Shown piece by piece: positions 33,132-46,711 of a stretch of DNA of 64,000 nucleotides (position 1 is its first letter; each line of letters begins with the position of its first letter). Both the position numbers and the translations under genes were made by a program. The stretch is taken from NCBI GenBank assembly GCA_964412965.1, contig CAYPQU010000003.1, positions 2,788 through 66,787 of the forward strand. The letters are read 5' to 3'. The stretch comes from an uncultured Candidatus Saccharibacteria bacterium (GTDB lineage Bacteria; Patescibacteriota; Minisyncoccia; Phycocordibacterales; UBA9973). The notes under the pieces were generated by a model, which had not been told where the DNA came from, searched no databases, and worked only from the letters and a program-made list of their open reading frames with translations.

Positions 33132-34601
33132 TTATTGTTTTCTTAAAAACAAAGGGTTTTCTGGTTTTTTATTCTCTCGAATTAATTCTTGAATTTTTCT
33201 TGATGTTTCAGGTAAAAATGGTTCAAGAGAAAGAGCGTTCCCGTATAAGTGATATAATAAGTAGTGAACATCATTTTTTGCACCCTCTTCATCAATTTTT
33301 ATCTTTTTAAAAGGTTCAGTTTTTTGAATATATTCATCTAGTGTTCGAAGACTAAACCAGATTTTATTTATGAATTTATTTATATCAAAAGATTCTAAAT
33401 CAGAAATTTCTTCTGTAAAAGACTTCATTTGCAGTTCCTCTTGGCTTAATTTAACATCATAGTTTGTCGCCATGGTCATTACACGACTTGTTAAGTTACC
33501 TAGCCCGTTTGCCAATCCTGAATTATATGCATCTTTAAATCTTTCTATCGTAAAAGGACTATCTTCAAAACTACTAATTTCTTTTAGCATAAAAAATCTT
33601 AGTGCGTCGACGCCATACTCTTCGACGACATCTCTTGGGTCAAATGAATTTCCTAGCGATTTAGACATTCGAACTCCACCCTCTCCTGTAATAAAACCAT
33701 TGACTACTATTTGGTGAGAGGTGGGAAGGCCTGCCGCCAAAAGCATTGCCTGCCACATTGCACTTTGAAAACGAGTATTGTCTTTACCACAATACTGAGT
33801 AGGAGTTCCCTCTTTCCAGTATTTAATAAATTTTTCTGACTTTTCTAAATCTTCTAAGGTTTCAACTCCTTCCTCTGCTAATGTTGAAACATAGTTAGTC
33901 AGTGCATCAAACCAGACATACATAACCTGGGTATCGTCTTCTGGTACAGGTATCCCCCATGGCATTTTTTCTTTCAATCGTGATATTGAAAAATCTTGTA
34001 GTCCTGCGTTAACGAAATTTTTAATTTCATTTAAGCGAAAATCTGGAACGACAAAATTAGGATTTTTCTCATATAGGTCTAATAATTTTTCTCCAAAAGC
34101 AGAGTACTTAAAGAAATAATTTTCTTCTTCTATTACCTTCAAATCCATATTGGGGTGATCTTTACATCTATCGTTTTCAAGATCAGAATCAGTTTTCTCG
34201 CTTTCACACCCTACACAGTATTTTGCACTATAATTTTTTTTATAAATATAACCGTTTTCTTTTACCCTGCTCCAAAAAGACTGGGCTATTTTAATATGTT
34301 TTTCATCTGTCGTGCGAATAAAATTAATATCTTCGCTTAATCCAAAAATCTTTATTTGCTCTTTAAAGGTTTTAAAGTTCTTGTCTAGGAAATCTTGAAC
34401 AATCATTCCTTCTTCTCTAGCTTTCTCAAAAATTTTGACTCCATGTTCATCTGTCCCGGTATTAAAATAAACATCATATCCCAAAAGCTTTTTGTATCTG
34501 ACAATACTGTCAGCTCTTATAAACTCTAAGGCGTGCCCCATGTGTAGTGGAGCGTTTATATATGGTAATGTTGTTGTTAAGAATAAAGTTTTATTTTTCA
34601 T
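33132..34601 (-). CDS. metG: Methionyl-tRNA synthetase
   Basis: HMGHALEF (HIGH), KMSKSLGN, and a Zn knuckle CVGCE...C. Confidence 0.95.
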   Translation of the reverse strand: MKNKTLFLTTTLPYINAPLHMGHALEFIRADSIVRYKKLLGYDVYFNTGTDEHGVKIFEKAREEGMIVQDFLDKNFKTFKEQIKIFGLSEDINFIRTTDEKHIKIAQSFWSRVKENGYIYKKNYSAKYCVGCESEKTDSDLENDRCKDHPNMDLKVIEEENYFFKYSAFGEKLLDLYEKNPNFVVPDFRLNEIKNFVNAGLQDFSISRLKEKMPWGIPVPEDDTQVMYVWFDALTNYVSTLAEEGVETLEDLEKSEKFIKYWKEGTPTQYCGKDNTRFQSAMWQAMLLAAGLPTSHQIVVNGFITGEGGVRMSKSLGNSFDPRDVVEEYGVDALRFFMLKEISSFEDSPFTIERFKDAYNSGLANGLGNLTSRVMTMATNYDVKLSQEELQMKSFTEEISDLESFDINKFINKIWFSLRTLDEYIQKTEPFKKIKIDEEGAKNDVHYLLYHLYGNALSLEPFLPETSRKIQELIRENKKPENPLFLRKQ

Positions 34602-34606
34602 AATTA

Positions 34607-35671
34607 TTAAATTTGTTTTTCTATTTTTTTCTTTTCTAGGTCATCCAAGAATTCCAATAAACAAACTGATACAGGTATCGCCAAAACTACTCCAAGGAAA
34701 CCAGCTAATTCATAGCCAATAATTATTGATAAAATAACAACTAAAGGAGAAATACCAATGATTTTTTTAATAATTAACGGATAAATCAAATAAGTCTCAA
34801 ACTGGTGCAAAATAAAGTATAACGCAAACGAAAGAAGGGCCATTGTGATACCTCCATCTAAAAATCCAAACAGCGCCACAGGGACTACTGCCACAAAAAT
34901 ACCATAAGGTATGAGTTCTAGTAACGCCGTTAAAATAGCCAAGACCAGAGAATATTTAACCCCTAAAATTGTAAGCCCTAAATATGCCAAAACTCCTATA
35001 ATTAATCCCAAAAGCATTTGTCCTTGCATCCAAAGACCAATCTTTCTCTCTGTCCTTTGCCAGAGACTTATTACATACTCTTCTTGTTTTTTAGGAGTTA
35101 CTACTCTTAAAAAATTCTCTATACCCTTTTCTGTAATCGATAGATAGAAAGATATTATTAAAATGAAACCAAAATTAACCACTCCGCCAAATGCACCACC
35201 AAATACATCCATGAAACCTCCAGACATACTATCAATCAATGTTTTGAAACTAGAGATAACCTCTCCGATAGAAGCATTTTTTGATATGCTTGAAAAAATG
35301 TCTTTGGCCCCGGTCAACGTATCAGGTTGAAATGTATTAAAGACGCTACTGTTGGGTATGTACTGACTTAGAGAAGAAACTAGACTTGACATTTCTCTTA
35401 TGAAAACAGGCATAAAAACTGATGACAAGCCTACAATCAAAGATATCGCTATGGCGTAGACAAGAAAAACCGCAAAAGACCTGTTCTTTATGTATGGCTT
35501 AAGTTTTCTAACCGCTGACTCAACAAATGAAGCTATCACTATTGCCACCAGAATAATCAGAATAATATTATAAAGCTTATAAAGAGCTAAACAAATTAAT
35601 GAAAAAACAATCAACTTAACGAAGCTTTTGTTTGATATATTTATTTGTGGGCTTTTTATACTTCCTTCCAT
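34607..35671 (-). CDS. AI-2E family transporter (second copy)
   Basis: UPF0118/PerM-like polytopic membrane protein. Confidence 0.65.
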   Translation of the reverse strand: MEGSIKSPQINISNKSFVKLIVFSLICLALYKLYNIILIILVAIVIASFVESAVRKLKPYIKNRSFAVFLVYAIAISLIVGLSSVFMPVFIREMSSLVSSLSQYIPNSSVFNTFQPDTLTGAKDIFSSISKNASIGEVISSFKTLIDSMSGGFMDVFGGAFGGVVNFGFILIISFYLSITEKGIENFLRVVTPKKQEEYVISLWQRTERKIGLWMQGQMLLGLIIGVLAYLGLTILGVKYSLVLAILTALLELIPYGIFVAVVPVALFGFLDGGITMALLSFALYFILHQFETYLIYPLIIKKIIGISPLVVILSIIIGYELAGFLGVVLAIPVSVCLLEFLDDLEKKKIEKQI

Positions 35672-35727
35672 ATCTAAAAGAATAATACCACATTTTAATG
35701 ATATTTTAAATGTGGTATTAATCGATT

Positions 35728-37029
35728 TTATTGATTCATTCTTTCTTTTATGTAATCAATTAGGTCGTCTTTTTTAATTCTCTCCTGAAAAGCGGTGTCT
35801 CTGTTTCGAATTGTTACGGTATCATTTTCTAGCGTTTCAAAATCTACAACAATACACCACGGTGTCCCTATTTCATCTTGTCTTCTGTATCGCTTTCCAA
35901 TATTTCCATTGTCATCCCACATGACTCTTCCAAATTCATCTTTTAGACTTCTGTAAACTATTCGAGCGTAGTCTTTTAATTCTGGTTTATTTTTTAGTAA
36001 AGGAGAAACAGCACATATAACAGGAGCTATCGACGGCTTAAACGCTAGATAAGGTCTGGGTTCTTCTCCATTTTTGTCTTCTTTATAAGCTCCTACCAAT
36101 ATAGCTAGTACAGTTCTGTCTACTCCCAAAGAAGGCTCTATAACATGCGGAACAATTTTTTCATTGGTTTCCTCGTCTTGATACGTCAAATCATGTCTAC
36201 TTAAATCAAAATCTGTTCTATAAGCCAAACCGTATAATTCTTTTCTTCCAAAAGGAAAATCAAATTCAAAATCTATCGTTCTTTTTGAATAATGGGCTAG
36301 ACTTTCTACTGGAACTTCCAATTCATGCACCTTAGTCATATCAAGACCAATTTCTTCCATCCACTCAATCATTTCTGTTCTCCAATATTCAAAATAATTT
36401 TCCCAATTATCTCCCTTCAAAAAATATTCTATTTCCATTTGTTCGAACTCTCTGACTCTAAATATAAAATCTCGAGGGGTTATTTCGTTACGAAAAGCTT
36501 TACCAATTTGAGCAAGTCCGAAAGGAAGTTTTGGGTGAAAAGAATCTACAATATTTTTAAAATTAACAAACATCCCTTGTGCTGTTTCTGGCCTCAAATA
36601 AATAGTGGCAGAAGTATCCTCTACGGCCCCTATTTGCGTCTTAAACATCATATTGAAGGCCTTAGGGGCTCCTACAGCGCTTCCACATTCATCACACATT
36701 CCTGGCTCTTTCAAGGTGTCTTCTCTAAAACGCCTTTTACACTTAGTACATTCTACCAACGGGTCAGTGAAAGTATCTACGTGACCAGAAGCTTTCCAAA
36801 CTGCAGGATGCATTAAAATAGCAGCATCAACTCCATACATATCTTCTCTTCCGTCAACAAATTTTTTCCACCAAGAATTTTTTATGTTATTTTTTAGAGC
36901 AACTCCCAAGTGTCCGTAATCCCAAGTTCCTGCCAATCCTCCATATATTTCAGAACCTTGATAAATAAATCCTCTTCTCTTCGATAAAGAGATTATAGAT
37001 TCCATAATTTTATTATCTTCTTTTTTCAT
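35728..37029 (-). CDS. glyQS: Glycyl-tRNA synthetase (dimeric class II type)
   Basis: RRGFIYQGSEIYGGLAGTWDYGHLG. Confidence 0.9.
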   Translation of the reverse strand: MKKEDNKIMESIISLSKRRGFIYQGSEIYGGLAGTWDYGHLGVALKNNIKNSWWKKFVDGREDMYGVDAAILMHPAVWKASGHVDTFTDPLVECTKCKRRFREDTLKEPGMCDECGSAVGAPKAFNMMFKTQIGAVEDTSATIYLRPETAQGMFVNFKNIVDSFHPKLPFGLAQIGKAFRNEITPRDFIFRVREFEQMEIEYFLKGDNWENYFEYWRTEMIEWMEEIGLDMTKVHELEVPVESLAHYSKRTIDFEFDFPFGRKELYGLAYRTDFDLSRHDLTYQDEETNEKIVPHVIEPSLGVDRTVLAILVGAYKEDKNGEEPRPYLAFKPSIAPVICAVSPLLKNKPELKDYARIVYRSLKDEFGRVMWDDNGNIGKRYRRQDEIGTPWCIVVDFETLENDTVTIRNRDTAFQERIKKDDLIDYIKERMNQ

Positions 37030-37049
37030 TTTTGTAATTTTATAATTTA

Positions 37050-38933
37050 TTAATTTGATACTCGTCCATTTTCTGAACCACCAGATACTCCACTAACAGA
37101 AGAAATATAGAGGCTGTTCATCGTACTTCCAACTTGTGATCCAGAATAAGTATCTGTACCAGTTAGTGAAATATTTTGTATCAGAACTGGCGTCTGTCCG
37201 ATTTGAGAAAGCGAGGGTTTGAAATTTAAAATAAAGGAAACTTCTCTGTTTGAATCCACCCCTGTACCGGGAGAGACTGTTCCTATTTTCCAAGTTATTT
37301 GCCTGTTTTCTTTATTGTAAGAAATATTTTCTTTTGTACCCGCCACAAAACCAACCCAGTCTGCATAAATAGGCAAGTTTGCGCTCACGCTAGCTTGACT
37401 AACACTATTTGTCGAATTAGATAATGTCCAAGTAACTAAATAGTTGGTATTACCTTCTGCTCTTGGAGGCAAATCCCCAGAAAGATACGTCAGAGATGAA
37501 GCAACCTGGAAATCAGTATTTAGCTTAATTATTTTTTCAGTAAAATTATCTACATTAGAAAAACTAGAACCATACAAAGGTTGTTTTCCTTTAATGCTTA
37601 CACTTATTTCTGCTTGAGGATTTTTAACACCAGAAAGACTAGTTAGGCGTAGTGGGGTGATATCAAATGAAACTTTTCCAGTCGCTCCTGGTCCGATGGA
37701 CCCAAGCTCTCTCATGGTGCTTTTATTCCAAATTATTTGGCTATTTAAAGAATCATAATATCCATTCTTTTCTTCAATATCATTTTTATTAATAATATTT
37801 CCGCTTATATGAGCAATAATTTCGGCATCGTTAACGCTTGTCGATAAATTATTTTTCCAAGTAATATCAACAGAAACTTCCTTACCTCCATCAACTGCGT
37901 ATTCCTCCAAATCCTGATTATTAACCAAAACTTTTACTTCCAAGAATGGGTTTTCTATAACCATCTTTTGTAAAACAGAACTATAAACTACTCCTATCTT
38001 GGATGTATCTTTGCTGTCCATTGTTCCAACATATGAGTGAAAAACTTGTTCGTCTCCAGTCTGTCCCATTATCCTACCTTTTATCTCTATAGTCAGAGGT
38101 GTGGTTGGAGATATGGTGGATAAATCCCACACATAATTATCATTCATTGGAAGAGGGTTAGCGGTTTCTAGGATAAAGTTACTTGGATGTCTTAGTTGTA
38201 AAATTAGATTCTCGCTAGGAAGAGTTGTGTTTAGAGAAGTCGTAATCTTCAAAGAAATTGGCTGATTCGCGATGATACTACTAGGTGCTTCCATTTTTAA
38301 AGAAACAGGAGCCACACTAATAGTTATTGGATAATATTTTTCTTTTGTGAAAACAGCATTTGAACCTTCTGGTTGATATTCAAGCGCAGCCCTAATGTTT
38401 TTTATTGATTTTTCTGCTCCATACAGTCTTACTCGAACATTTCTAACTACCGTTTCTCCGGGCTTAATAACACCGATCTCATCTTTTTCTAGTCGCATTA
38501 TTTCTGAATCATCATTTGCCCCCTTAGGATATTCAATAATCAAATCTGCTGATTCTAAGCTAGCATTATTTCTATTAGTGATTTCAACTTGCAAAGACAA
38601 ATCTTCCCCTCCTTTTGTAAAAGAATTACCCATTATCTCTAAATCTATCTTATTGCTTGAGACAGTTGATTCGTCTAAGAAAAATTTATATGTTGTATAT
38701 CCTACGGCTCCCAAGAAAAAGATAATTGATAAAATAAAGAATTTTTTAAAGAATGAAGTTTGGGTTTTTTTATTTTTTTTAGGCATATCTACTTCTTTTG
38801 GTTTATCCCATTCGTCTTTGACATCATATCTCTGTTCTCTTAGAACCCCCCTTCTGTGACTGAAGGATTCATCGTATTTGGGATCGTATAGTTTTCTTTT
38901 TAAATCTTCAATTTTTCCTTTATTTTCTGACAT
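37050..38933 (-). CDS. Large hypothetical surface protein (cytoplasmic N-tail, one TM, beta-rich exodomain)
   Basis: Topology and composition only. Confidence 0.45.
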   Translation of the reverse strand: MSENKGKIEDLKRKLYDPKYDESFSHRRGVLREQRYDVKDEWDKPKEVDMPKKNKKTQTSFFKKFFILSIIFFLGAVGYTTYKFFLDESTVSSNKIDLEIMGNSFTKGGEDLSLQVEITNRNNASLESADLIIEYPKGANDDSEIMRLEKDEIGVIKPGETVVRNVRVRLYGAEKSIKNIRAALEYQPEGSNAVFTKEKYYPITISVAPVSLKMEAPSSIIANQPISLKITTSLNTTLPSENLILQLRHPSNFILETANPLPMNDNYVWDLSTISPTTPLTIEIKGRIMGQTGDEQVFHSYVGTMDSKDTSKIGVVYSSVLQKMVIENPFLEVKVLVNNQDLEEYAVDGGKEVSVDITWKNNLSTSVNDAEIIAHISGNIINKNDIEEKNGYYDSLNSQIIWNKSTMRELGSIGPGATGKVSFDITPLRLTSLSGVKNPQAEISVSIKGKQPLYGSSFSNVDNFTEKIIKLNTDFQVASSLTYLSGDLPPRAEGNTNYLVTWTLSNSTNSVSQASVSANLPIYADWVGFVAGTKENISYNKENRQITWKIGTVSPGTGVDSNREVSFILNFKPSLSQIGQTPVLIQNISLTGTDTYSGSQVGSTMNSLYISSVSGVSGGSENGRVSN

Positions 38934-38960
38934 AAAAGCATTATATCATAAAAAGATATT

Positions 38961-39545
38961 TTATAATTGGCTTTCAAGAAGAGCCTTGTTTATGTGGGCG
39001 ATTATTGACTGTCTTTCTTTTAGTAAGTCTTTTGTTTTCTCCTTGTTAAAAGAAGATCCTAAATATTTTATCAAAATCGAAGAGTCTCCTATATAACCAA
39101 GCTCATTCATGATTCTTAAGACAAGATGGAGCTCTATCGCTTCTCTTGTATCATTTTCAACTTCATCGTCTAATATATAAATTGACTGAATAAGTTCATC
39201 AAAAATTTTTTGATTTACGGATTCTGCTCCACAAAATCTATCGACAAGAGAAGAGATACGGGCAACCAAAAGCAGTGAATCTTTATTTGCTCTTGCCAAT
39301 GGAAAAGTATTTATGCTTTTGGCTGAAGTGACCCTCCAAACCTCTTTCCCTTTTACAAAATCAATATTAGCATATGAAAAATCCTGAAGTATAGATTTTA
39401 ACTTTGATTTATTTAATCTTATTCCCTGCACCATTGCACGCACAAGCCCCAACTCTCTAGTGAAAATTGTAATCATTTTATTAGCTTCACCGACATTACG
39501 TGAAGACAAAATAAATCCTTGCGTGTGATAAATATGATGATGCAT
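38961..39545 (-). CDS. recO: Putative recombination protein RecO (short form)
   Basis: N-terminal OB-fold pattern GFILSSRNVGEANKMITIFTRELGLVRAMVQG. The call is tentative. Confidence 0.4.
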   Translation of the reverse strand: MHHHIYHTQGFILSSRNVGEANKMITIFTRELGLVRAMVQGIRLNKSKLKSILQDFSYANIDFVKGKEVWRVTSAKSINTFPLARANKDSLLLVARISSLVDRFCGAESVNQKIFDELIQSIYILDDEVENDTREAIELHLVLRIMNELGYIGDSSILIKYLGSSFNKEKTKDLLKERQSIIAHINKALLESQL

Positions 39546-39563
39546 ATTAAATTCGGATTAGTT

Positions 39564-42500
39564 TTATTTTACCACCTTAATTACAAAAGTTAAATCTGCA
39601 ATTTTTACTTCTGTCCCTTCGTTGTCTTTATATTCTATCGCCTTAGCAGATACTAATTTTTGAATATTTTCCTTAAACTTTTCTATCAAACCCTGCCCTT
39701 CTTCGTTAGTTTTAATCAAGAGCGTAATTAGATCGTTTGGATTTAAATCGTTTTTCTTTCTTATGTCTTGAATAGCTCTAACCAACTCTCTGTAATTTCC
39801 TTCTTTCTTTAAATCTTCGGTTATGTTTATATCCAAGATAACTTCGAGCTCTTGCCCTTCTTCAAATTTAACATTTTTAATGTTCAACTCATCTTTTAGA
39901 ATAGAGACATACTCTTCTTTTAAGTTATATTTTTTAACAGTTATTTCTTGCAGAGGTTGTCTTACGGGGATTGAGGCCTTTTGTCTATTTTGTAATCCCA
40001 AAGTTACGATCTCTCGTAGCTCCTTCATGTCTTCAATAACCTTATCATCGTAAGCGAATCCTTCTGGCCACTCTCCGAGGTGGACGCTCATGGAATCATT
40101 TTCTAATTTTAATTTTTGCCAAATATCTTCAGCGGAAAAAGGAGCAAATGGCGCCATTAATTTTGCCATTGTTTTAAATACAAAATAAATAGTTTGTTTG
40201 GCTTCTATGTCTCCCTCTTTTATTCTGTCTCTTGAGCGACGTAAATACCAAGTAGATAAATCGTCAATAAAGCCTCTCATCGCTCTCGCAGGTTCTAGTA
40301 ATTTATAATTTTCTAAGTTTTCTGTTGATACTTTTATCAATTCTCCCAGTCTAGATAATATCCAAATATCTAAGACGTTTTTACTGTTTGGTTTATCACT
40401 TGTTACTATTTTTGTATCTCTATACAACTCATAAAAAGCAAAAACATTGTAAAACAAATTGAAGAACTTGTTATTCAATTCTGCAACTGTTTTTTCATCA
40501 AAGTTTTTTGGTTCCCCAGGTTGGTTTATTGAATACATCCAGAGTCTTAAAGTATCAACTCCATATTTATCTGACATTTCCCAAGGATCAACTCCGTTGC
40601 CGAGAGATTTAGACATCTTCTTTCCATTGGCGTCGAGAACCAACCCGAGACAAATCACATTTTTAAATGCTTTTCCTTTACCCATGATTGTTCCTACTGC
40701 ATGTAACGTATAGAACCACCCTCTTGTTTGGTCTATCCCCTCACTGATGAAGTCTGCAGGATAAGCAATATCTGTAGTACTAAAAGGATAATGGCTTTGA
40801 GCAAAAGGCATTGACCCGGAATCCAGCCAGACGTCCATAACTTCTTTTGCTCTTTCTAATTTTCCACCACAATCGCAAACAACATCCACTTCATCAATAT
40901 ATGGTCTGTGCAAGTCTAGTTCATAATTTTCATCATGAGGAATTGGTTTAAAATCAAGCTCTCTAATTTCTGAATTAACAAGACAAGAGAAATCTTTTAG
41001 CATGGAGAGCGTTTGCCTTGCTCCATATCCGTTTATTCCCGCAAGCATCAACCAAGCTGGTCCCCCATGTGTTACGATTAAAATATTTTTACCTTGATAT
41101 TTATTTTCTAGGCCGTACAAGAAGTCCATTGATCTTTTTCTAAGCTCATTCCAAGTCTCACTTCCTTCTTCTGTTTTATAGAAGTTCTCTTCTGTGTTTG
41201 GATAATCATTGTGATAATCTTGCCAAGTTTTACCTTCATATTTAGAGACCTTGTATTCAGTTAGACTTTCATCAATTAAAATATTTTTTTCGTCATATCC
41301 CAATATTTTCGCTACTTCTATGGCAGTTTCTCTTGCTCTTGTTACAGGTGAAGAAATAATTAAATCTATTTTTTCATTTTTTAATTTTTCTGCATTATTT
41401 CTTGTCTCATTGACACCCTTTTCCGTTAGATGACTAACTCGATATTCATCAGAAGTATTTATTTTTCCGTCTAAATTATTTTCAGATTCACCATGACGCA
41501 TTACAAAATATTTATTACCAGAAGTTTTTGCTTTGGATTTTATATCTTCAACTCCACCTAGGACTTCTATTTTGCCACAAGTATCACATTTCCAGACAGG
41601 AAGCGGAGTCCCCCAATATCTTTCTCGAGAGATTGCCCAATCTTTAATATCTTTTAGCCACTCTCCAAAACGCCCTTCTTTAATATATGAAGGCTCCCAA
41701 TTTATATTTTCATTTTCTTTAACCATCTTGTCTTTAAGCGCAGACATTCTGATATACCAAGAATCTCGCGCATAATATATAAGAGCTGTTTTACATCTCC
41801 AGCAATGAGGGTAAGTGTGTTCGTACTTTTCTTTCTTATGCAAAAGTCCTTTTCCTGCCAAATCTTTTATTATATCGACAGCCACATCTTCGTCTCGAAC
41901 AAATCTATCTTTTAGAAAATCAGTTCCTTCCAGGAATTTTCCATCAAGCCCAACAAGATGACATTTAGGTAATCCTACTTTATTGCCAAGCTCAAAGTCG
42001 TCTTGACCATACATGGGAGCAATATGCACCACCCCTGTTCCGTCTTCTGTAGTCACAAAATCCGCTCCATATATTTTATAAGCATTTTCCATTTTTTCAG
42101 CTTCTTCTTTCGATGCTATTGCTTTTGTATACGGATATAGTGGTTCATATGAAAGACCAATTAAATCTTTCCCTTTTAATTCTTCTACAATATTATATTC
42201 TCCTTCCAAAACAGAAAGTCGTGATTTCGCAAGAATTAAAAATTCTCCATTTTGTTCTACGCGAACATAATCAATATCTTCTCCAACTGCCAAGGCGACA
42301 TTTGAAGGAAGAGTCCAAGGAGTTGTCGTCCAAACTAATATGTGAATTTCTTCGCCTGTATGCTTATGCGAATGGTCTGGCTCCGGCTCTTGTCCCCCTC
42401 GTCCGAGGACCTGAGCAGAAGCATCAGGCGAAGAAACCTGGAAACTCGAAGCTCCTGTTAATTTAAATTTCACGTACACGGTTATATCTTTCACATCCTG

Positions 42501-43091
42501 ATATCCTTGAGCCAGTTCATGCGAAGAGAGCCCAGTTCCACATCTAGGACACCAGGGTACTATTTTATAGTCTTTATAAAGTAAATTTTGCTTATGTGCT
42601 TCTTTGATGACATTCCATACTGATTCGATGTAAGTATTATGATACGTAACATACGGATTTTCCTGATCAACCCAAAAGCCTATCCTGTCTGTGAATTTAT
42701 GCCATAAATCTGTATAGTTCCAAACATTGTGCTTGCATTCTTTATTAAATTTATCTATTCCATATTCTTCAATATCTTTTTTTGATTGCAAGTTTAACTT
42801 TTTCTCTACTTCAATTTCAACAGGAAGACCATGAGTATCCCAACCACCCTTTCTCGTGACGTGATAACCATTCATTGTCTTATAACGCAAAACCGCATCC
42901 TTAAAAGCTCTCGCCGCTAGATGGTGAATTCCAGGCTTGCCATTCGCCGTCGGAGGGCCTTCGAAGAAAACATACTCTCCCTTCGGAGAATTCTTCTCTA
43001 AACTTTTTTCAAAAATTTTATTGTCCTGCCAAAACTCTAAAACTTTTTCTTCTCTCAGTGCATTATTTGATTTTGTTTTTTCTTCGTTCAT
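39564..43091 (-). CDS. ileS: Isoleucyl-tRNA synthetase carrying an internal ~180-aa histidine-phosphatase-like insertion
   Basis: HIGH region PPTANGKPGIHHLA, WTTTPWTLPSN, KMSKSLGNG. The insert carries FVMRHGESENN...SSPVTRARETA...THGG between split Cys pairs CDTCG and CDCGG. Confidence 0.95.
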   Translation of the reverse strand: MNEEKTKSNNALREEKVLEFWQDNKIFEKSLEKNSPKGEYVFFEGPPTANGKPGIHHLAARAFKDAVLRYKTMNGYHVTRKGGWDTHGLPVEIEVEKKLNLQSKKDIEEYGIDKFNKECKHNVWNYTDLWHKFTDRIGFWVDQENPYVTYHNTYIESVWNVIKEAHKQNLLYKDYKIVPWCPRCGTGLSSHELAQGYQDVKDITVYVKFKLTGASSFQVSSPDASAQVLGRGGQEPEPDHSHKHTGEEIHILVWTTTPWTLPSNVALAVGEDIDYVRVEQNGEFLILAKSRLSVLEGEYNIVEELKGKDLIGLSYEPLYPYTKAIASKEEAEKMENAYKIYGADFVTTEDGTGVVHIAPMYGQDDFELGNKVGLPKCHLVGLDGKFLEGTDFLKDRFVRDEDVAVDIIKDLAGKGLLHKKEKYEHTYPHCWRCKTALIYYARDSWYIRMSALKDKMVKENENINWEPSYIKEGRFGEWLKDIKDWAISRERYWGTPLPVWKCDTCGKIEVLGGVEDIKSKAKTSGNKYFVMRHGESENNLDGKINTSDEYRVSHLTEKGVNETRNNAEKLKNEKIDLIISSPVTRARETAIEVAKILGYDEKNILIDESLTEYKVSKYEGKTWQDYHNDYPNTEENFYKTEEGSETWNELRKRSMDFLYGLENKYQGKNILIVTHGGPAWLMLAGINGYGARQTLSMLKDFSCLVNSEIRELDFKPIPHDENYELDLHRPYIDEVDVVCDCGGKLERAKEVMDVWLDSGSMPFAQSHYPFSTTDIAYPADFISEGIDQTRGWFYTLHAVGTIMGKGKAFKNVICLGLVLDANGKKMSKSLGNGVDPWEMSDKYGVDTLRLWMYSINQPGEPKNFDEKTVAELNNKFFNLFYNVFAFYELYRDTKIVTSDKPNSKNVLDIWILSRLGELIKVSTENLENYKLLEPARAMRGFIDDLSTWYLRRSRDRIKEGDIEAKQTIYFVFKTMAKLMAPFAPFSAEDIWQKLKLENDSMSVHLGEWPEGFAYDDKVIEDMKELREIVTLGLQNRQKASIPVRQPLQEITVKKYNLKEEYVSILKDELNIKNVKFEEGQELEVILDINITEDLKKEGNYRELVRAIQDIRKKNDLNPNDLITLLIKTNEEGQGLIEKFKENIQKLVSAKAIEYKDNEGTEVKIADLTFVIKVVK

Positions 43092-43399
43092 ATGTTTTCT
43101 ATTTAACTAATAATTTTAATAATTATCCAAGAAAATAAAAATAAGTCTTTGAGAAATACCTTGCGCAGAGCGACGGCTCGAGCAGAGAAATTTTTCAACA
43201 GAAAAATATTCGTGCATTTCGAGAAGAGCTTATTTTTGCTTTCTCTTAAGAAAAAAACTCGTTATTTAATAATTATCCCAAGAAAGCAAGAATAAGTCTT
43301 TGAGAAATGACTAGGGAGCGCGACGGCGCGAGCTCGAGGAATTTTTCAGCAGAAAAATATCCGTGCATTTCGAGAAGAGCTTATTTTTGCTTTCCCTTA

Positions 43400-43600
43400 A
43401 CAAAAAACTCGTCCTTGTATAACAATCGACTGATTGCTACATAAGGACGAGTTTCTCTCCTCGTGGTACCACCTTAATTCCCCTAAAAGGGCTTATTTTA
43501 CAGCTTTTACGGGCTTACCCGCTAAGTTCTAATCTCCTTTTGTGGATTTCTTCTTAGTGCTCCGAGGTGATGTCCTCTTCAACGCTTCTATATATATATT
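43400..43600 (-). promoter_or_regulatory. T-box riboswitch leader (Ile specifier) upstream of ileS
   Basis: In the sense strand: a stem I region containing ggacATCacc (ATC = Ile codon), the T-box sequence aattaaggtggtaccacgagg, and the terminator ctcgtcctt...aaggacgag followed by tttttt. Confidence 0.7.
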
Positions 43601-43745
43601 ATATCATATTTACTGTTAAATTAAAAGCGTCTGACCAGTTGACTATATAAACGACAAGCCCTCTCTGAAACGCTCCTCCTTGCGTCGGAGTCGTTTCAAA
43701 GAGGATGTAATAATGAAATAATGAAAATTCTAGGCGGGCAAACCA

Positions 43746-44534
43746 CTACCTAACACAGCGAACATAGAACCCGCTAGTCTGACTGTGGTTGTACAAGTTA
43801 CCATTGTTCATGCTCTGGTAGTAAGCGAGCGTAGTAGGCGAAGACGGAACAGGGATAGAAGACCAGTAAACGCTCGCTACGAAACCAAGAGGAGTGTAAG
43901 GTGTAGCGGTTGCTCCAGCACCTGCATAAGATGCCCAATATAGGGTTCTCAATTGTTCAATAGAAGGAAGGCGTCCGCCGTTTGTAGTACAAGCAGTTTT
44001 TGCTGTAGACCAGTTCATAGTATTGCTACCCAAAACATCATCACCTGGGAGTGAAGCTCCGGCTGATGTTACACTCCTTGTATCCCACTTAACTACTCCG
44101 TTTTCATCTACTGACCATGCTTTGAGTTCACCAGTGTCATAGATGAGGGCTGTGGCTCCGAAACGAAAGTTGTTGTCACCTAAATAAACACCACTGGTAC
44201 CTAGATAGCTAAAGCATTTAACTATAATTCCTTGGTCAATAAGAGGTTGAGCTATTTTAGCTAGATTACCTCCTGGGCCTGTACAGGTTAAATCTGAATA
44301 TGATGTATTAGAGTTTGCAAAACTACCATATTCTGCTTGATTGATGGCAGCTTGGTTGTATAGTTGTTTTAAGGAGGATTTAATAGAAGCAATCTTGCTC
44401 TTTTCTCTTGCAGAGTTTAGTGAAGTGATGACAACTGATGAGAGTATTCCGATGATTGCAATTACTACCAATAGTTCTATCAATGTAAACCCTTTGGTAA
44501 ATTTTGATGATTTAAAAATAGATTTTTTACTCAT
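43746..44534 (-). CDS. Type IV pilin-like protein with a C-terminal DUF1566-like domain (paralog of 31363-32139)
   Basis: Identical prepilin N-terminus (GFTLIELLVVIAIIGILSSVVITSLNSAREKSKIA). The C-terminus ends GFYVRCVR, and its 3' region is GC-rich. Confidence 0.7.
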   Translation of the reverse strand: MSKKSIFKSSKFTKGFTLIELLVVIAIIGILSSVVITSLNSAREKSKIASIKSSLKQLYNQAAINQAEYGSFANSNTSYSDLTCTGPGGNLAKIAQPLIDQGIIVKCFSYLGTSGVYLGDNNFRFGATALIYDTGELKAWSVDENGVVKWDTRSVTSAGASLPGDDVLGSNTMNWSTAKTACTTNGGRLPSIEQLRTLYWASYAGAGATATPYTPLGFVASVYWSSIPVPSSPTTLAYYQSMNNGNLYNHSQTSGFYVRCVR

Positions 44535-44810
44535 GTTTTTATTATATCATCATATTGTTTAACGACAACCCTTAATTATCAAATCCCCCCTTTTATACAA
44601 ACCAAACCTATATAATTAATTCCATCCATCACCTTACGCGATCGCTTGCAGTGATGTAAAATATCAAGATCTCAATTTCATAAGTTAAATCCATGTAAAA
44701 AACAACAGCATTTCTATCCATTACTTTACGCGATAGCGTAAAGTAATGGATAGAAATATTATTATTCTGCTATATCCCAACTTCCCTGGGTCTGGCCCAA
44801 GGGAACTGGA

Positions 44811-44936
44811 CTAGGTGAACAGACACAAGGTAACAAATCTGAGTGAATAGGCCTATGTGAACGGACCTAGGTGAACAGACTTAGGTGAACAAACTTAAGA
44901 GAACAAACTCAGGTGGGCAGACCTAAGGGAACGAAC
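44811..44936. repeat. Nine tandem degenerate 14-bp repeats (consensus cTAGGTGAACAGAC)
   Basis: Read directly: ctaggtgaacagac, ctatgtgaacggac, ctaggtgaacagac, ttaggtgaacaaac, ttaagagaacaaac, tcaggtgggcagac, ctaagggaacgaac and others. Confidence 0.7.
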
Positions 44937-45010
44937 ACAAGAGGATCTTATTTTTTCTAATAACACTACACTTTTGCACAAAGTGCAAAAGTGTAGTGTT
45001 TTCTTTCTTT

Positions 45011-46711
45011 TTACATTTTGTCTGGTATTTTTATACCCAAAAGCCATAAGCCATTTTCCATTGTTTGATAAAAAGCTTTTATCAAGTCCAGATGATATTT
45101 TACATTCTTGTTATCTTCTACTAGAATTTTAGTGTTACCATAAAAAGCATTAAAGGAACTTGCGAGCTCTGTAAGATATTTAACGATATGATGTGGTTCG
45201 AGATTTGTGTAAGATTTTTCTACTACTTCACCAAATTGATATAAATTCTTTTCTAATTCAGAAGTCTCATTTGGAATTTCCCCTCTTCCCTCCAAGCTAA
45301 AATCTTTTGATTTAGCCAAAATAGAATTCGCTCGAACAGCCGTGTATTGCAAGTACGGACCCGAGTCTCCATCAAAAGAAATTGATTTGTCAAAGTCATA
45401 AATTATGTCTGAACCCAGTGAAGATTTTAATATTGAATATCGAAGAGCGGCAACTCCTACAAATTCTCCTATTTGATTCTTTTCTTCTTCGCTAAATTCT
45501 CGTTCTGCAATCTTTTCTCGAACAACTGAAATAGAATCACTTATCAGAGATTCTCCTGTGATGATATTCCCTTTTCGTGATGACATCTTGCCGGTTGAGA
45601 GCTTCATCATACCGTGTGTGACATGTTTCATTTTCTTTTCCATTTCTGGGTACATTAGCGAAATCGCCTTTTGGACTACTTTCATATAATCGGCTTGCTC
45701 AATAGCTGTAGTGACAATTGAAATATCGGGATTTTCTTTTTTAAACTTAGTTAAAGTAAGACCTATCTCTTTTGTCTCATAAGTGGGAACTCCTTGAGAA
45801 TTTATAAATACACGGGTGTGAAGCTTGGGGTCATAATTTTCTCCATGAAAAACAACAGCCCCATCTGATTCTTCAAAGATTTTTCCAATATTATCCCGCA
45901 CAATCTTTTCTCCTATGTGTATCATGTCACTTTCAAAAAAATAATGCTTAAATTTTGTATCCAGAATTTTATAAATTACCTCAAAGGCCTCAAGGGTGAT
46001 TTCTCTGCCCCAATTATATATATCTTTTATGCTTTCATCTTTTAAATAAATCTTTTTATTTAGTTCGTCTATTTCCTTTTTTACTGATTCGTCCTCATCG
46101 TAAAGATTGCTTGCTTTTGAATAACATTCTCCAATATAAATTGCCTTCTCTGAAACATTTTTATCCTCTTCAGGTAAGCCAAATTTATTTAGACCATATA
46201 TAGCCTTAGCGACGTGTAGTCCTATATCCCCCTGATAATTAGCTCGTATTGTCTCTGCTCCAGAAAATTCAACAATTCTCGAAACTGATTCACCGACAGC
46301 ATTAGCCATCAAGTGACCAATATGAAACGGCTTAAATGGATTAGGATCGGTATATTCCACCATCACTTTTTTGCCCGCTAAAATTTTATTCTTCCCCCAA
46401 TTTTCTTTGTTATCTAAAATATCTTTTACGATATGAGTAAAGAATTCTCGCGAAAGATAAAAATTAATAAATCCCGGCCCAGCAATTTCTATTTTTTCAA
46501 TTTCTCTTGGTAAATCTTTTTCTGCTTCAATCTTTATTTCTTCGGCCAACTGCCTTGGATTCTTTCCCACCTTTTTAGCACAAACCATAGCCACGTTCGT
46601 AGAATAATCTCCGTGACTAAAATCATCTGGATGCTCAACCACAAAAGAAACCTCTTCAATTCCGAGATTTTTCAAAACTTCTTTTATTTTATTTTCTATT
46701 ATATTTTTCAT
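45011..46711 (-). CDS. argS: Arginyl-tRNA synthetase
   Basis: HIGHLMANAVGESVSRI and the class I ArgRS layout. Confidence 0.95.
   Translation of the reverse strand: MKNIIENKIKEVLKNLGIEEVSFVVEHPDDFSHGDYSTNVAMVCAKKVGKNPRQLAEEIKIEAEKDLPREIEKIEIAGPGFINFYLSREFFTHIVKDILDNKENWGKNKILAGKKVMVEYTDPNPFKPFHIGHLMANAVGESVSRIVEFSGAETIRANYQGDIGLHVAKAIYGLNKFGLPEEDKNVSEKAIYIGECYSKASNLYDEDESVKKEIDELNKKIYLKDESIKDIYNWGREITLEAFEVIYKILDTKFKHYFFESDMIHIGEKIVRDNIGKIFEESDGAVVFHGENYDPKLHTRVFINSQGVPTYETKEIGLTLTKFKKENPDISIVTTAIEQADYMKVVQKAISLMYPEMEKKMKHVTHGMMKLSTGKMSSRKGNIITGESLISDSISVVREKIAEREFSEEEKNQIGEFVGVAALRYSILKSSLGSDIIYDFDKSISFDGDSGPYLQYTAVRANSILAKSKDFSLEGRGEIPNETSELEKNLYQFGEVVEKSYTNLEPHHIVKYLTELASSFNAFYGNTKILVEDNKNVKYHLDLIKAFYQTMENGLWLLGIKIPDKM

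Follow-up and report, generated by a model that had tools for sequence, protein, structure and literature searches.

The closest described relative of the gene treated here is the 'unusual isoleucine-tRNA synthetase' of SR1 (RAAC1)/ACD80, for which Kantor et al. 2013 (mBio, PMC3812714) reported a Nudix domain and two domains of the phosphoglycerate mutase family. That mention amounts to one sentence, without insertion site, catalytic residues, distribution or operon link. Besides it, no description of an isoleucyl-tRNA synthetase (IleRS), or of another aminoacyl-tRNA synthetase, with a histidine phosphatase or phosphoglycerate mutase was found in the literature, and an embedded phosphatase goes unmentioned in a 2026 bioRxiv survey of IleRS C-terminal evolution. 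The gene in question is ileS in a 64,000 nt stretch of contig CAYPQU010000003.1 (assembly GCA_964412965.1); this whole stretch is referred to as the window. It was deposited as 'uncultured Candidatus Saccharibacteria', and submitter taxon labels of this kind may be loose. The window enzyme and the SR1/ACD80 enzyme are both IleRS of the candidate phyla radiation (CPR) interrupted by phosphoglycerate mutase (His_Phos_1) family domains; the former differs in that it has a single domain of this family, located in CP3, and lacks a Nudix domain. As an IleRS frame interrupted by His_Phos_1 in a Patescibacteria genome, it fits the type noted by Kantor et al. A regular expression for the Nudix box matched none of the proteins fetched, and the SR1 architecture was not reproduced here.

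Aminoacyl-tRNA synthetases rank among the most strongly conserved of known enzymes, and a new catalytic domain is seldom found nested within their catalytic body. The best-known example, the CP1 editing domain, is universal among class Ia synthetases and hydrolyses mischarged tRNA. Together with the NCBIfam family NF040702 ('ileS_w_GNAT'), CP1 offers a precedent for a second catalytic domain nested in, or added to, IleRS. However, GNAT is another domain, and the window IleRS, at 314 bits against a cut-off of 1999, is not a member of that family. Across a very large and poorly understood bacterial radiation, IleRS has here kept within it a second enzyme whose catalytic residues are intact. The same module occurs in four settings: beside ileS, at several sites within IleRS, in the same loop of valyl-tRNA synthetase (ValRS), and fused to ArgRS or TsaC. 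Proteins of this kind are already in public databases under automatic labels and, as far as could be found, have apparently never been analysed; what is new here is the linkage of standalone phosphatase genes to ileS, the existence of two-copy IleRS, and the finding that the catalytic residues are strictly conserved and that the module has spread to ValRS, ArgRS and TsaC. Judged from sequence comparison, phosphatase and synthetase are probably functionally coupled, a whole PhoE/CobC-type domain having been internalized in CP3; we infer the coupling to aminoacylation from linkage and fusion.

The ileS open reading frame is single and unbroken over 1175 aa, as had been stated in an earlier note made from the letters of the window alone. 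The NCBIfam ileS model TIGR00392 matches the whole protein with 872.7 bits (cut-off 621.4), the profile match being broken at the insert. Pfam likewise places His_Phos_1 between two halves of tRNA-synt_1, with Anticodon_1 and DUF5915 also present. DUF5915, a type-2 trait, forms the C-terminus; the top PDB matches are the type-2 IleRS 8C8W and 1ILE, and the CP1 region aligns to the IleRS editing-domain structures 1WK8 and 1UE0. An AlphaFold2 (AF2) model of the full protein (pLDDT 83.6, pTM 0.74; insert region approximately 87–95 except for one block at 72) superposes on type-2 IleRS, and IleRS2 structures rank first in a Foldseek search with it. Compared with insert-less relatives (955–972 aa) and solved type-2 IleRS (1032 aa), the window enzyme is longer by approximately 145–220 aa, which agrees with the excess of about 150–200 aa over typical IleRS given in the earlier note. 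Its class-I signature is non-canonical, G54-I-H-H57 replacing HxGH. GIHH is the consensus among 119 close homologues, and GVHH is found in the divergent ileS genes downstream of standalone phosphatase genes; the G/AxHH motif is experimentally active and confers mupirocin hyper-resistance on IleRS2 (PMC10485003). Given an intact KMSKS loop, a GxHH motif of known function and an ileS equivalog score above cut-off, the host enzyme looks functional. The 64-kb window has no second ileS, and the enzyme encoded here is probably the type-2 IleRS that the cell uses.

Just before the CP1 editing domain, residues 213–249 (window 42345–42455, minus strand) form a GC-rich (0.46), low-complexity segment, 'GASSFQVSSPDASAQVLGRGGQEPEPDHSHKHTGEEI'. 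AF2 predicts disorder there (pLDDT <50) and the matching columns average 79 % gaps in the 119 homologues; the segment looks like a recent lineage-specific expansion.

Alignment places the insert in the surface-exposed distal loop of the CP3 zinc knuckle, within the catalytic body of IleRS. When residues 524–715 were deleted in silico and the rejoined flanks searched against the PDB, the flanks were collinear with residues 429–533 of Thermus thermophilus (Tt) IleRS at E 4e-42, with a length difference of 4 residues. C502, C505, C739 and C741 of the window enzyme correspond in the alignment to the zinc ligands C461, C464, C502 and C504 of Tt IleRS. The loop is homologous to CP3 of type-2 IleRS (Thermus 1ILE; Priestia megaterium IleRS2 8C8U-8C9D), with all four zinc cysteines aligned, but it holds 233 residues between the Cys pairs, compared with approximately 37 in Tt IleRS. 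The split Cys cluster of the earlier note, with halves put at about 225 aa apart, is the known CP3 zinc knuckle. In an insert-less relative (P0063) the region reads '...C-x2-C-GK-x-ICIGSIKELKEKT-ISSLPEN-LHRPYVDD-x5-CDCG...'; thus, a tip loop of approximately 7–15 residues has been replaced by a domain of 192 aa. The CP3 zinc motif of Tt IleRS is missing in Staphylococcus aureus and Candida IleRS, and CP3 topology differs from enzyme to enzyme (PMC7191050). For Plasmodium IleRS, a network analysis found the CP3 base to contain residues adjoining the active site (PMC12077802).

The borders of the insert were set by comparison with insert-less IleRS and with whole free-standing homologues, which it matches end to end, from an 'NKYFxLRHG' N-terminus to a 'GElRkL' C-terminus. 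The junctions read ...KAKT/SGNKYF... and ...ELDFK/PIPH.... PF00300 (His_Phos_1) matches residues 529–694 at E 3.4e-31 (108.8 bits against a gathering score of 21.7; profile positions 2–166 of 194), far above what chance would give; this bears out the central claim of the earlier note, a histidine phosphatase domain inside IleRS. The motifs it had quoted (CDTCG, RHG, the second Arg, THGG and the CDCG cysteines) were all found where it had put them; its interval, 40977–41516 (aa 526–705), lies inside the insert and falls short of the full extent, aa 524–715. The full branch-1 set is present, consisting of R532-H533-G534, N539, R585, E612 and H675. AF2 modelled the segment aa 500–745 as a phosphatase fold with pLDDT 96.1 and pTM 0.92, and Foldseek matched this predicted domain at probability 1.00 to GpgP, PspA and PhoE. 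The insert is therefore predicted to be a complete, confidently folded His_Phos_1 domain of branch 1.

The description 'PGAM-like' in the earlier note stood as regards a branch-1 histidine phosphatase and is narrowed here to the short phosphatases, as distinct from true mutases. A profile of 20 inserts searched against the PDB matched best Geobacillus PhoE (1EBB/1H2E, E 1e-32), with Hydrogenobacter PspA (4IJ5), CobC and 9MMH among the further best matches; 9MMH is a histidine-family phosphatase (HFP) deposited as 'phosphoglycerate mutase'. Against the approximately 200-aa phosphatases GpgP Rv2419c, HFP, PspA and PhoE, the domain model superposes with a root-mean-square deviation (rmsd) of 2.6–3.3 Å and a target-normalized TM score of 0.72–0.77. 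Genuine cofactor-dependent (2,3-BPG-dependent) phosphoglycerate mutases (dPGMs) align over more columns, but at an rmsd of approximately 5 Å. GpmA and its relatives share the superfamily and the phospho-histidine chemistry with the window domain, which nevertheless is shorter, misses all dPGM cut-offs in NCBIfam (dPGM_arch NF038349 72.7 against 225; GpmB 34.9 against 261; no GpmA match) and is structurally nearer to phosphatases. The named short phosphatases were not reached either (CobC 70.1 against 162.9; PspA 46 against 350; phosphoserine phosphatase 1 57.3 against 277; SixA 41.1 against 74.5). PhoE (1EBB/1H2E), PspA (4IJ5), CobC (6NRU), GpgP Rv2419c (4PZ9) and HFP (9MMH) have the same fold of approximately 200 aa and the same RHG...R...E...H set; however, these are free-standing metabolic enzymes, only 19–26 % identical to the insert and with no known association with an aminoacyl-tRNA synthetase. 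By sequence and model, the insert is of the short PhoE/CobC/PspA/GpgP phosphatase type and not a bona fide phosphoglycerate mutase; as it scores below every NCBIfam equivalog cut-off, it falls outside every characterized subfamily.

Features of the ileS locus and its synthetase neighbours (window coordinates; aa numbering of the window IleRS)
Feature	Coordinates	Strand	Basis
MetRS	33132–34601	–	
Class-II HGTP-type synthetase	35728–37029	–	
recO, immediately downstream of ileS	38961–39545	–	Pfam RecO_N; synteny marker
ileS, 1175-aa type-2 isoleucyl-tRNA synthetase hosting the insert	39564–43091	–	Continuous ORF (open reading frame); TIGR00392; PDB matches; AF2 and Foldseek
KMSKS loop, aa 825–829	40605–40619	–	Read from sequence; kept in 76–79 of 80 relatives
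CP3 C-arm with 'LHRPYID' and C739xC741, aa 716–745	40857–40946	–	Aligns to Tt IleRS 483–508 (C502, C504)
His_Phos_1 insert (PhoE/CobC-like), aa 524–715, 192 aa	40947–41522	–	Pfam, AF2, comparison with insert-less IleRS and free-standing homologues
H675, distal active-site histidine, in T674-H675-G-G	41067–41069	–	Conservation
E612, predicted general acid/base	41256–41258	–	Conservation
R585, second phosphate-binding arginine, in 'SSPVTRARET'	41337–41339	–	Conservation
R532-H533-G534, catalytic RHG; H533 predicted phospho-accepting nucleophile	41490–41498	–	Conservation
CP3 N-arm with C502xxC505 and native CP3 helix, aa 500–523	41523–41594	–	Aligns to Tt IleRS 459–482 (C461, C464)
G54-I-H-H57, non-canonical class-I signature	42921–42932	–	Read from sequence
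argS, upstream of ileS; relatives encode a standalone phosphatase between argS and ileS	45011–46711	–	Pfam ArgRS domains

Across the genomes compared, the embedded architecture is ancient and widespread in Patescibacteria. An identical protein is encoded on an independent 69-kb NCBI contig and relatives with 85–92 % identity occur in other assemblies; PF00300 is found in all 120 best full-length homologues (61–100 % identity, 1138–1270 aa). A locus scan over one genome per GTDB species, seeded with an alignment of six inserts, returned at least 546 loci encoding a relative. The best match is the RAAC4 OD1 genome, also published by Kantor et al. 2013 (PMC3812714). The best 80 of these loci, all labelled Patescibacteria, were inspected. 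In 79 the domain lies inside a long IleRS frame and the 80th is cut by the contig end, so that the survey of related CPR IleRS suggested in the earlier note recovers the same insertion. Frames away from contig ends are approximately 1120–1220 aa, apart from two longer ones. The labels of the relatives include Nomurabacteria, Paceibacterota, Zambryskibacteria, Adlerbacteria and Parcubacteria RAAC4_OD1_1. Proteins of 680–760 aa that start just before the phosphatase were considered as candidate split IleRS; P0306, however, begins 45 nt from a contig end, and these are most likely truncated gene calls.

Conservation is concentrated on the phosphatase active site. R532, H533, E612 and H675 are invariant in 119 of 119 close homologues and in all 80 species-level genomes. 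R585 is kept in 118 of the 119 and in all 80, N539 in all 119 and in 79 of the 80, and G534 is Gly in 79 of the 80 and Ala in one. The insert as a whole is the fastest-evolving part of the protein, with 43–46 % identity to the window protein compared with 57–87 % for the Rossmann, CP1 and anticodon-binding parts. The zinc cysteines of CP3 are kept all-or-none in the 80 insert-bearing IleRS, being present in 31 and lost together, all four, in 49. The phosphatase active site is thus under stricter selection than the host zinc knuckle, a difference that argues for catalysis over a structural spacer. The CP-core cysteines C181, C184, C430 and C433 are retained in nearly all of the same 80 enzymes.

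A HMMER search with the insert alone against 1.84 billion cluster representatives returned many IleRS-embedded copies together with complete proteins of approximately 190–205 aa, 33–41 % identical to the insert. Where the downstream neighbour of such a standalone gene could be identified among those looked up (6 genes on 7 contigs), it was in every case ileS, on the same strand and 1–118 nt away. The whole of ileS is visible in two of these loci, L082 (972 aa) and L084 (955 aa), and when aligned to the window IleRS it leaves out exactly aa 529–727; recO follows ileS in both, and argS often precedes the standalone phosphatase gene. When metagenomes were scanned with the standalone family as seed, 80 loci were recovered, 12 embedded and 68 standalone; of the latter, 61 could be judged downstream. 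An insert-less ileS lies downstream on the same strand in 49 of the 61: directly in 41, at approximately 1 kb in one, and behind a tandem pair of phosphatase (HP) genes, in the order HP-HP-ileS, in seven. The adjacency is seen with two divergent IleRS subtypes, 35–38 % and approximately 40–54 % identical to the window IleRS.

Conversely, the domain occurs exactly once in each of the 80 embedded-form loci, with no standalone gene in the surrounding 5 kb. Of these loci, 53 of 64 have argS upstream and 64 of 73 have recO downstream, and the window has the same order of argS, ileS and recO. Among the loci examined, the adjacent and embedded forms are mutually exclusive at one syntenic locus, which is a Rosetta-stone signal of functional association. 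This suggests that the operon partner was INTERNALISED, a neighbour gene that moved into the CP3 loop in a Paceibacteria-type lineage.

Capture of the module is not limited to one copy or to one enzyme. Two-copy IleRS of 1379–1468 aa, with DUF5915, exist in which the second copy is either in tandem within CP3 (P0329, P0305, P0330) or between KMSKS and the anticodon-binding domain (P0363, P0279, P0297, P0250). The paralogous copies are 30–44 % identical, and hence old, and each keeps the full catalytic signature, including RH. Homologues and NCBIfam identify P0243 as a ValRS; it has three full copies and, at the end where it is truncated, part of a fourth. Homologues of P0243 in Gracilibacteria and Peregrinibacteria score above the cut-off of the valS model NF004349 (897 and 882 bits against 704). 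One to three copies are present in 70 of 119 ValRS homologues (P0379–P0496; e.g. P0379, P0385 and P0381), which reach 1626 aa with copies compared with approximately 880–930 aa without insert. Most of the ValRS copies (74 of 83) lie just after the WxISRQ motif, a site homologous to IleRS CP3, and 8 of the 83 lie before it. Additionally, P0354 (L172, 6001–8070) is a complete ArgRS with the phosphatase on its C-terminus, recO following directly and ileS being absent at the locus, and in P0367 (L171, 977–2140) the phosphatase is fused to a Sua5/YrdC domain (TsaC, t6A pathway). All of these partners, IleRS, ValRS, ArgRS and TsaC, form an adenylate and pyrophosphate (PPi) from ATP and serve tRNA function.

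The mechanism established for the superfamily provides the basis for the catalytic steps proposed here. The domain would act as a phosphomonoesterase through a phospho-His533 intermediate, with R532, N539, R585 and H675 binding phosphate and E612 serving as general acid. An ancestral operon partner, internalized into the CP3 loop, would, from its tethered position at the CP3 tip, work jointly with the synthetase; the base of CP3 flanks the synthetic site. What it might act on is the most speculative step. A nucleotide-type product or by-product of the adenylation-editing cycle, such as AMP, PPi or a diadenosine polyphosphate (ApnA), rather than 3-phosphoglycerate, is offered as a doubtful suggestion. 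It is favoured because the partners share only the chemistry from ATP to AMP and PPi, because the embedded domains are acidic and because of the Nudix domain reported in SR1. The latter, on the account of Kantor et al. 2013, would be a hint of nucleotide-diphosphate chemistry. A tRNA end or a protein is less likely as a substrate, and 3-phosphoglycerate less likely still. More broadly, the module could be a dedicated accessory of adenylate-forming tRNA enzymes at the mouth of the synthetic site, which clears PPi, AMP or ApnA or dephosphorylates damaged tRNA 3′ ends; this role is put forward tentatively, as a minority possibility.

Several observations weigh against a coupling of this kind. To our knowledge, no branch-1 histidine phosphatase hydrolyses PPi or ApnA. 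Operon adjacency and fusion can both arise from co-expression alone, and neither of two insert-less valS genes checked has an adjacent phosphatase. Each of the fusions to ArgRS and TsaC is represented by one example, and that to ArgRS could be a trivial read-through from an adjacent gene. Finally, 12 of the 61 judgeable standalone genes are not beside ileS. Nine of these 12 come from one related genome set and share neighbours at 61–92 % identity; in another exception (L106) a yrdC/tsaC gene lies 330 nt downstream of the standalone copy. The genes not linked to ileS have no informative shared context (AckA, M23 peptidase, HI0933 flavoprotein, helicase, Ogt).

These exceptions in unrelated contexts would also be expected under the main rival explanation, that an active housekeeping phosphatase, directed at a sugar phosphate, phosphoserine or a cofactor intermediate, was fused into a permissive loop for co-expression or genome economy. 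The closest characterized relatives are indeed metabolic (PhoE, PspA, CobC, GpgP and the riboflavin HFP), CP3 is structurally variable, peripheral and tolerant of change, and sequence change is faster in the insert than in the IleRS core. The acidity of the embedded domains (median pI 5.7), which argues against RNA binding, is likewise that of ordinary soluble enzymes. Insertion within a loop is rare, however, and yet it has occurred at three or more sites in IleRS, in CP3 of ValRS and in tandem arrays of two to three copies with a partial fourth; with the ArgRS and TsaC fusions added, every partner is a tRNA enzyme that converts ATP to AMP and PPi, a restriction that co-expression alone explains poorly. 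Simple carriage of a housekeeping enzyme is thus considered unlikely. The same acidity bears on a phosphatase directed at tRNA or protein that restores chargeability, whether by clearing a 3′-phosphate, a 2′,3′-cyclic phosphate or a toxin-added pyrophosphate from the CCA end of the tRNA, or by acting on a residue of the synthetase that a kinase toxin has phosphorylated. Branch 1 does include the protein phosphatases SixA, PGAM5 and Sts-1, the insert matches the SixA model weakly (41 bits against a cut-off of 74.5), and IleRS, ValRS and ArgRS all bind tRNA. The domains are acidic and not basic, no RNA-binding features were detected in them, and the fusion partner TsaC/YrdC makes threonylcarbamoyl-AMP without itself binding tRNA; this explanation is accordingly rated as quite improbable.

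The 'PGAM-like' label and some automatic annotations would suggest instead that the insert serves the organism as its cofactor-dependent phosphoglycerate mutase. The top NCBIfam match of phosphatase type is the short archaeal dPGM model NF038349, one fragment bears the JGI label 'probable phosphoglycerate mutase', and lower glycolysis runs in CPR genomes (general knowledge; Kantor et al. 2013). Yet the dPGM_arch and GpmB scores given above are far below their cut-offs, GpmA gives no match, the size of approximately 190 aa is phosphatase-like, and the fold lies closer to PhoE, PspA and GpgP than to dPGMs; a glycolytic role is very improbable. An inert or artefactual origin, whether as a non-catalytic structural spacer, as a mobile or intein-like insertion or through misassembly, is effectively refuted. 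The extra copies at several sites superficially recall mobile insertions, but the catalytic residues are essentially invariant in approximately 200 sequences. No Hint or intein Pfam family was found in the window IleRS; the His_Phos_1 fold accounts for the whole insert, leaving no room for splicing or endonuclease motifs, and GC content shows no step at its borders. The view of the earlier note, that this is no intein and no known editing or insertion module of IleRS, is upheld, while its alternative of a known zinc-binding insertion of IleRS fails, as the insert scores as His_Phos_1 and only the flanks form the zinc knuckle. The chimera at the insert that it had thought possible is answered by the identical protein on an independent contig and by the 79 of 80 inspected genomes that share the architecture; recurrence across hundreds of independent assemblies excludes misassembly.

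If coupling of phosphatase and synthetase is real, it would represent a new accessory function of synthetases and offer insight into nucleotide and energy management in the CPR. A clean-up role, if true, would be a general and so far unrecognized function built into synthetases that might compensate for missing stand-alone enzymes in minimal genomes. If it is not real, the locus still shows an operon neighbour internalized into a loop of an essential enzyme. Current labels of these proteins include 'class I tRNA ligase family protein', 'histidine phosphatase family protein', 'probable phosphoglycerate mutase' and 'PhoE', and could produce false glycolysis calls in metabolic reconstructions of the CPR. 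CPR synthetases with embedded histidine phosphatases are a barely noted class, and one that constitutes a well-defined, testable problem.

The surroundings of ileS in the window have several further features. Between argS and ileS, at 43746–44534 on the minus strand, a type-IV-pilin-like protein is encoded, with an N-terminal methylation motif and an Lcl_C domain; its gene occupies the interval in which relatives encode the free-standing phosphatase. The ileS leader comprises the 654 bp between the ileS start at 43091 and this gene at 43746. No Rfam family reached its gathering score on the leader. Within it, a tandem direct repeat of approximately 151 bp is evident at 43105–43427, with two full copies of 75–93 % identity and a partial third, and a 23-nt hairpin is located at 43405–43454. 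Four aminoacyl-tRNA synthetase genes are located within 14 kb (33132–46711, minus strand). Between these synthetases lie an AI-2E transporter, recO and a 627-aa ORF (37050–38933) without Pfam match. Much of this order of the synthetase cluster is kept in distant Patescibacteria loci (L082 and L172).

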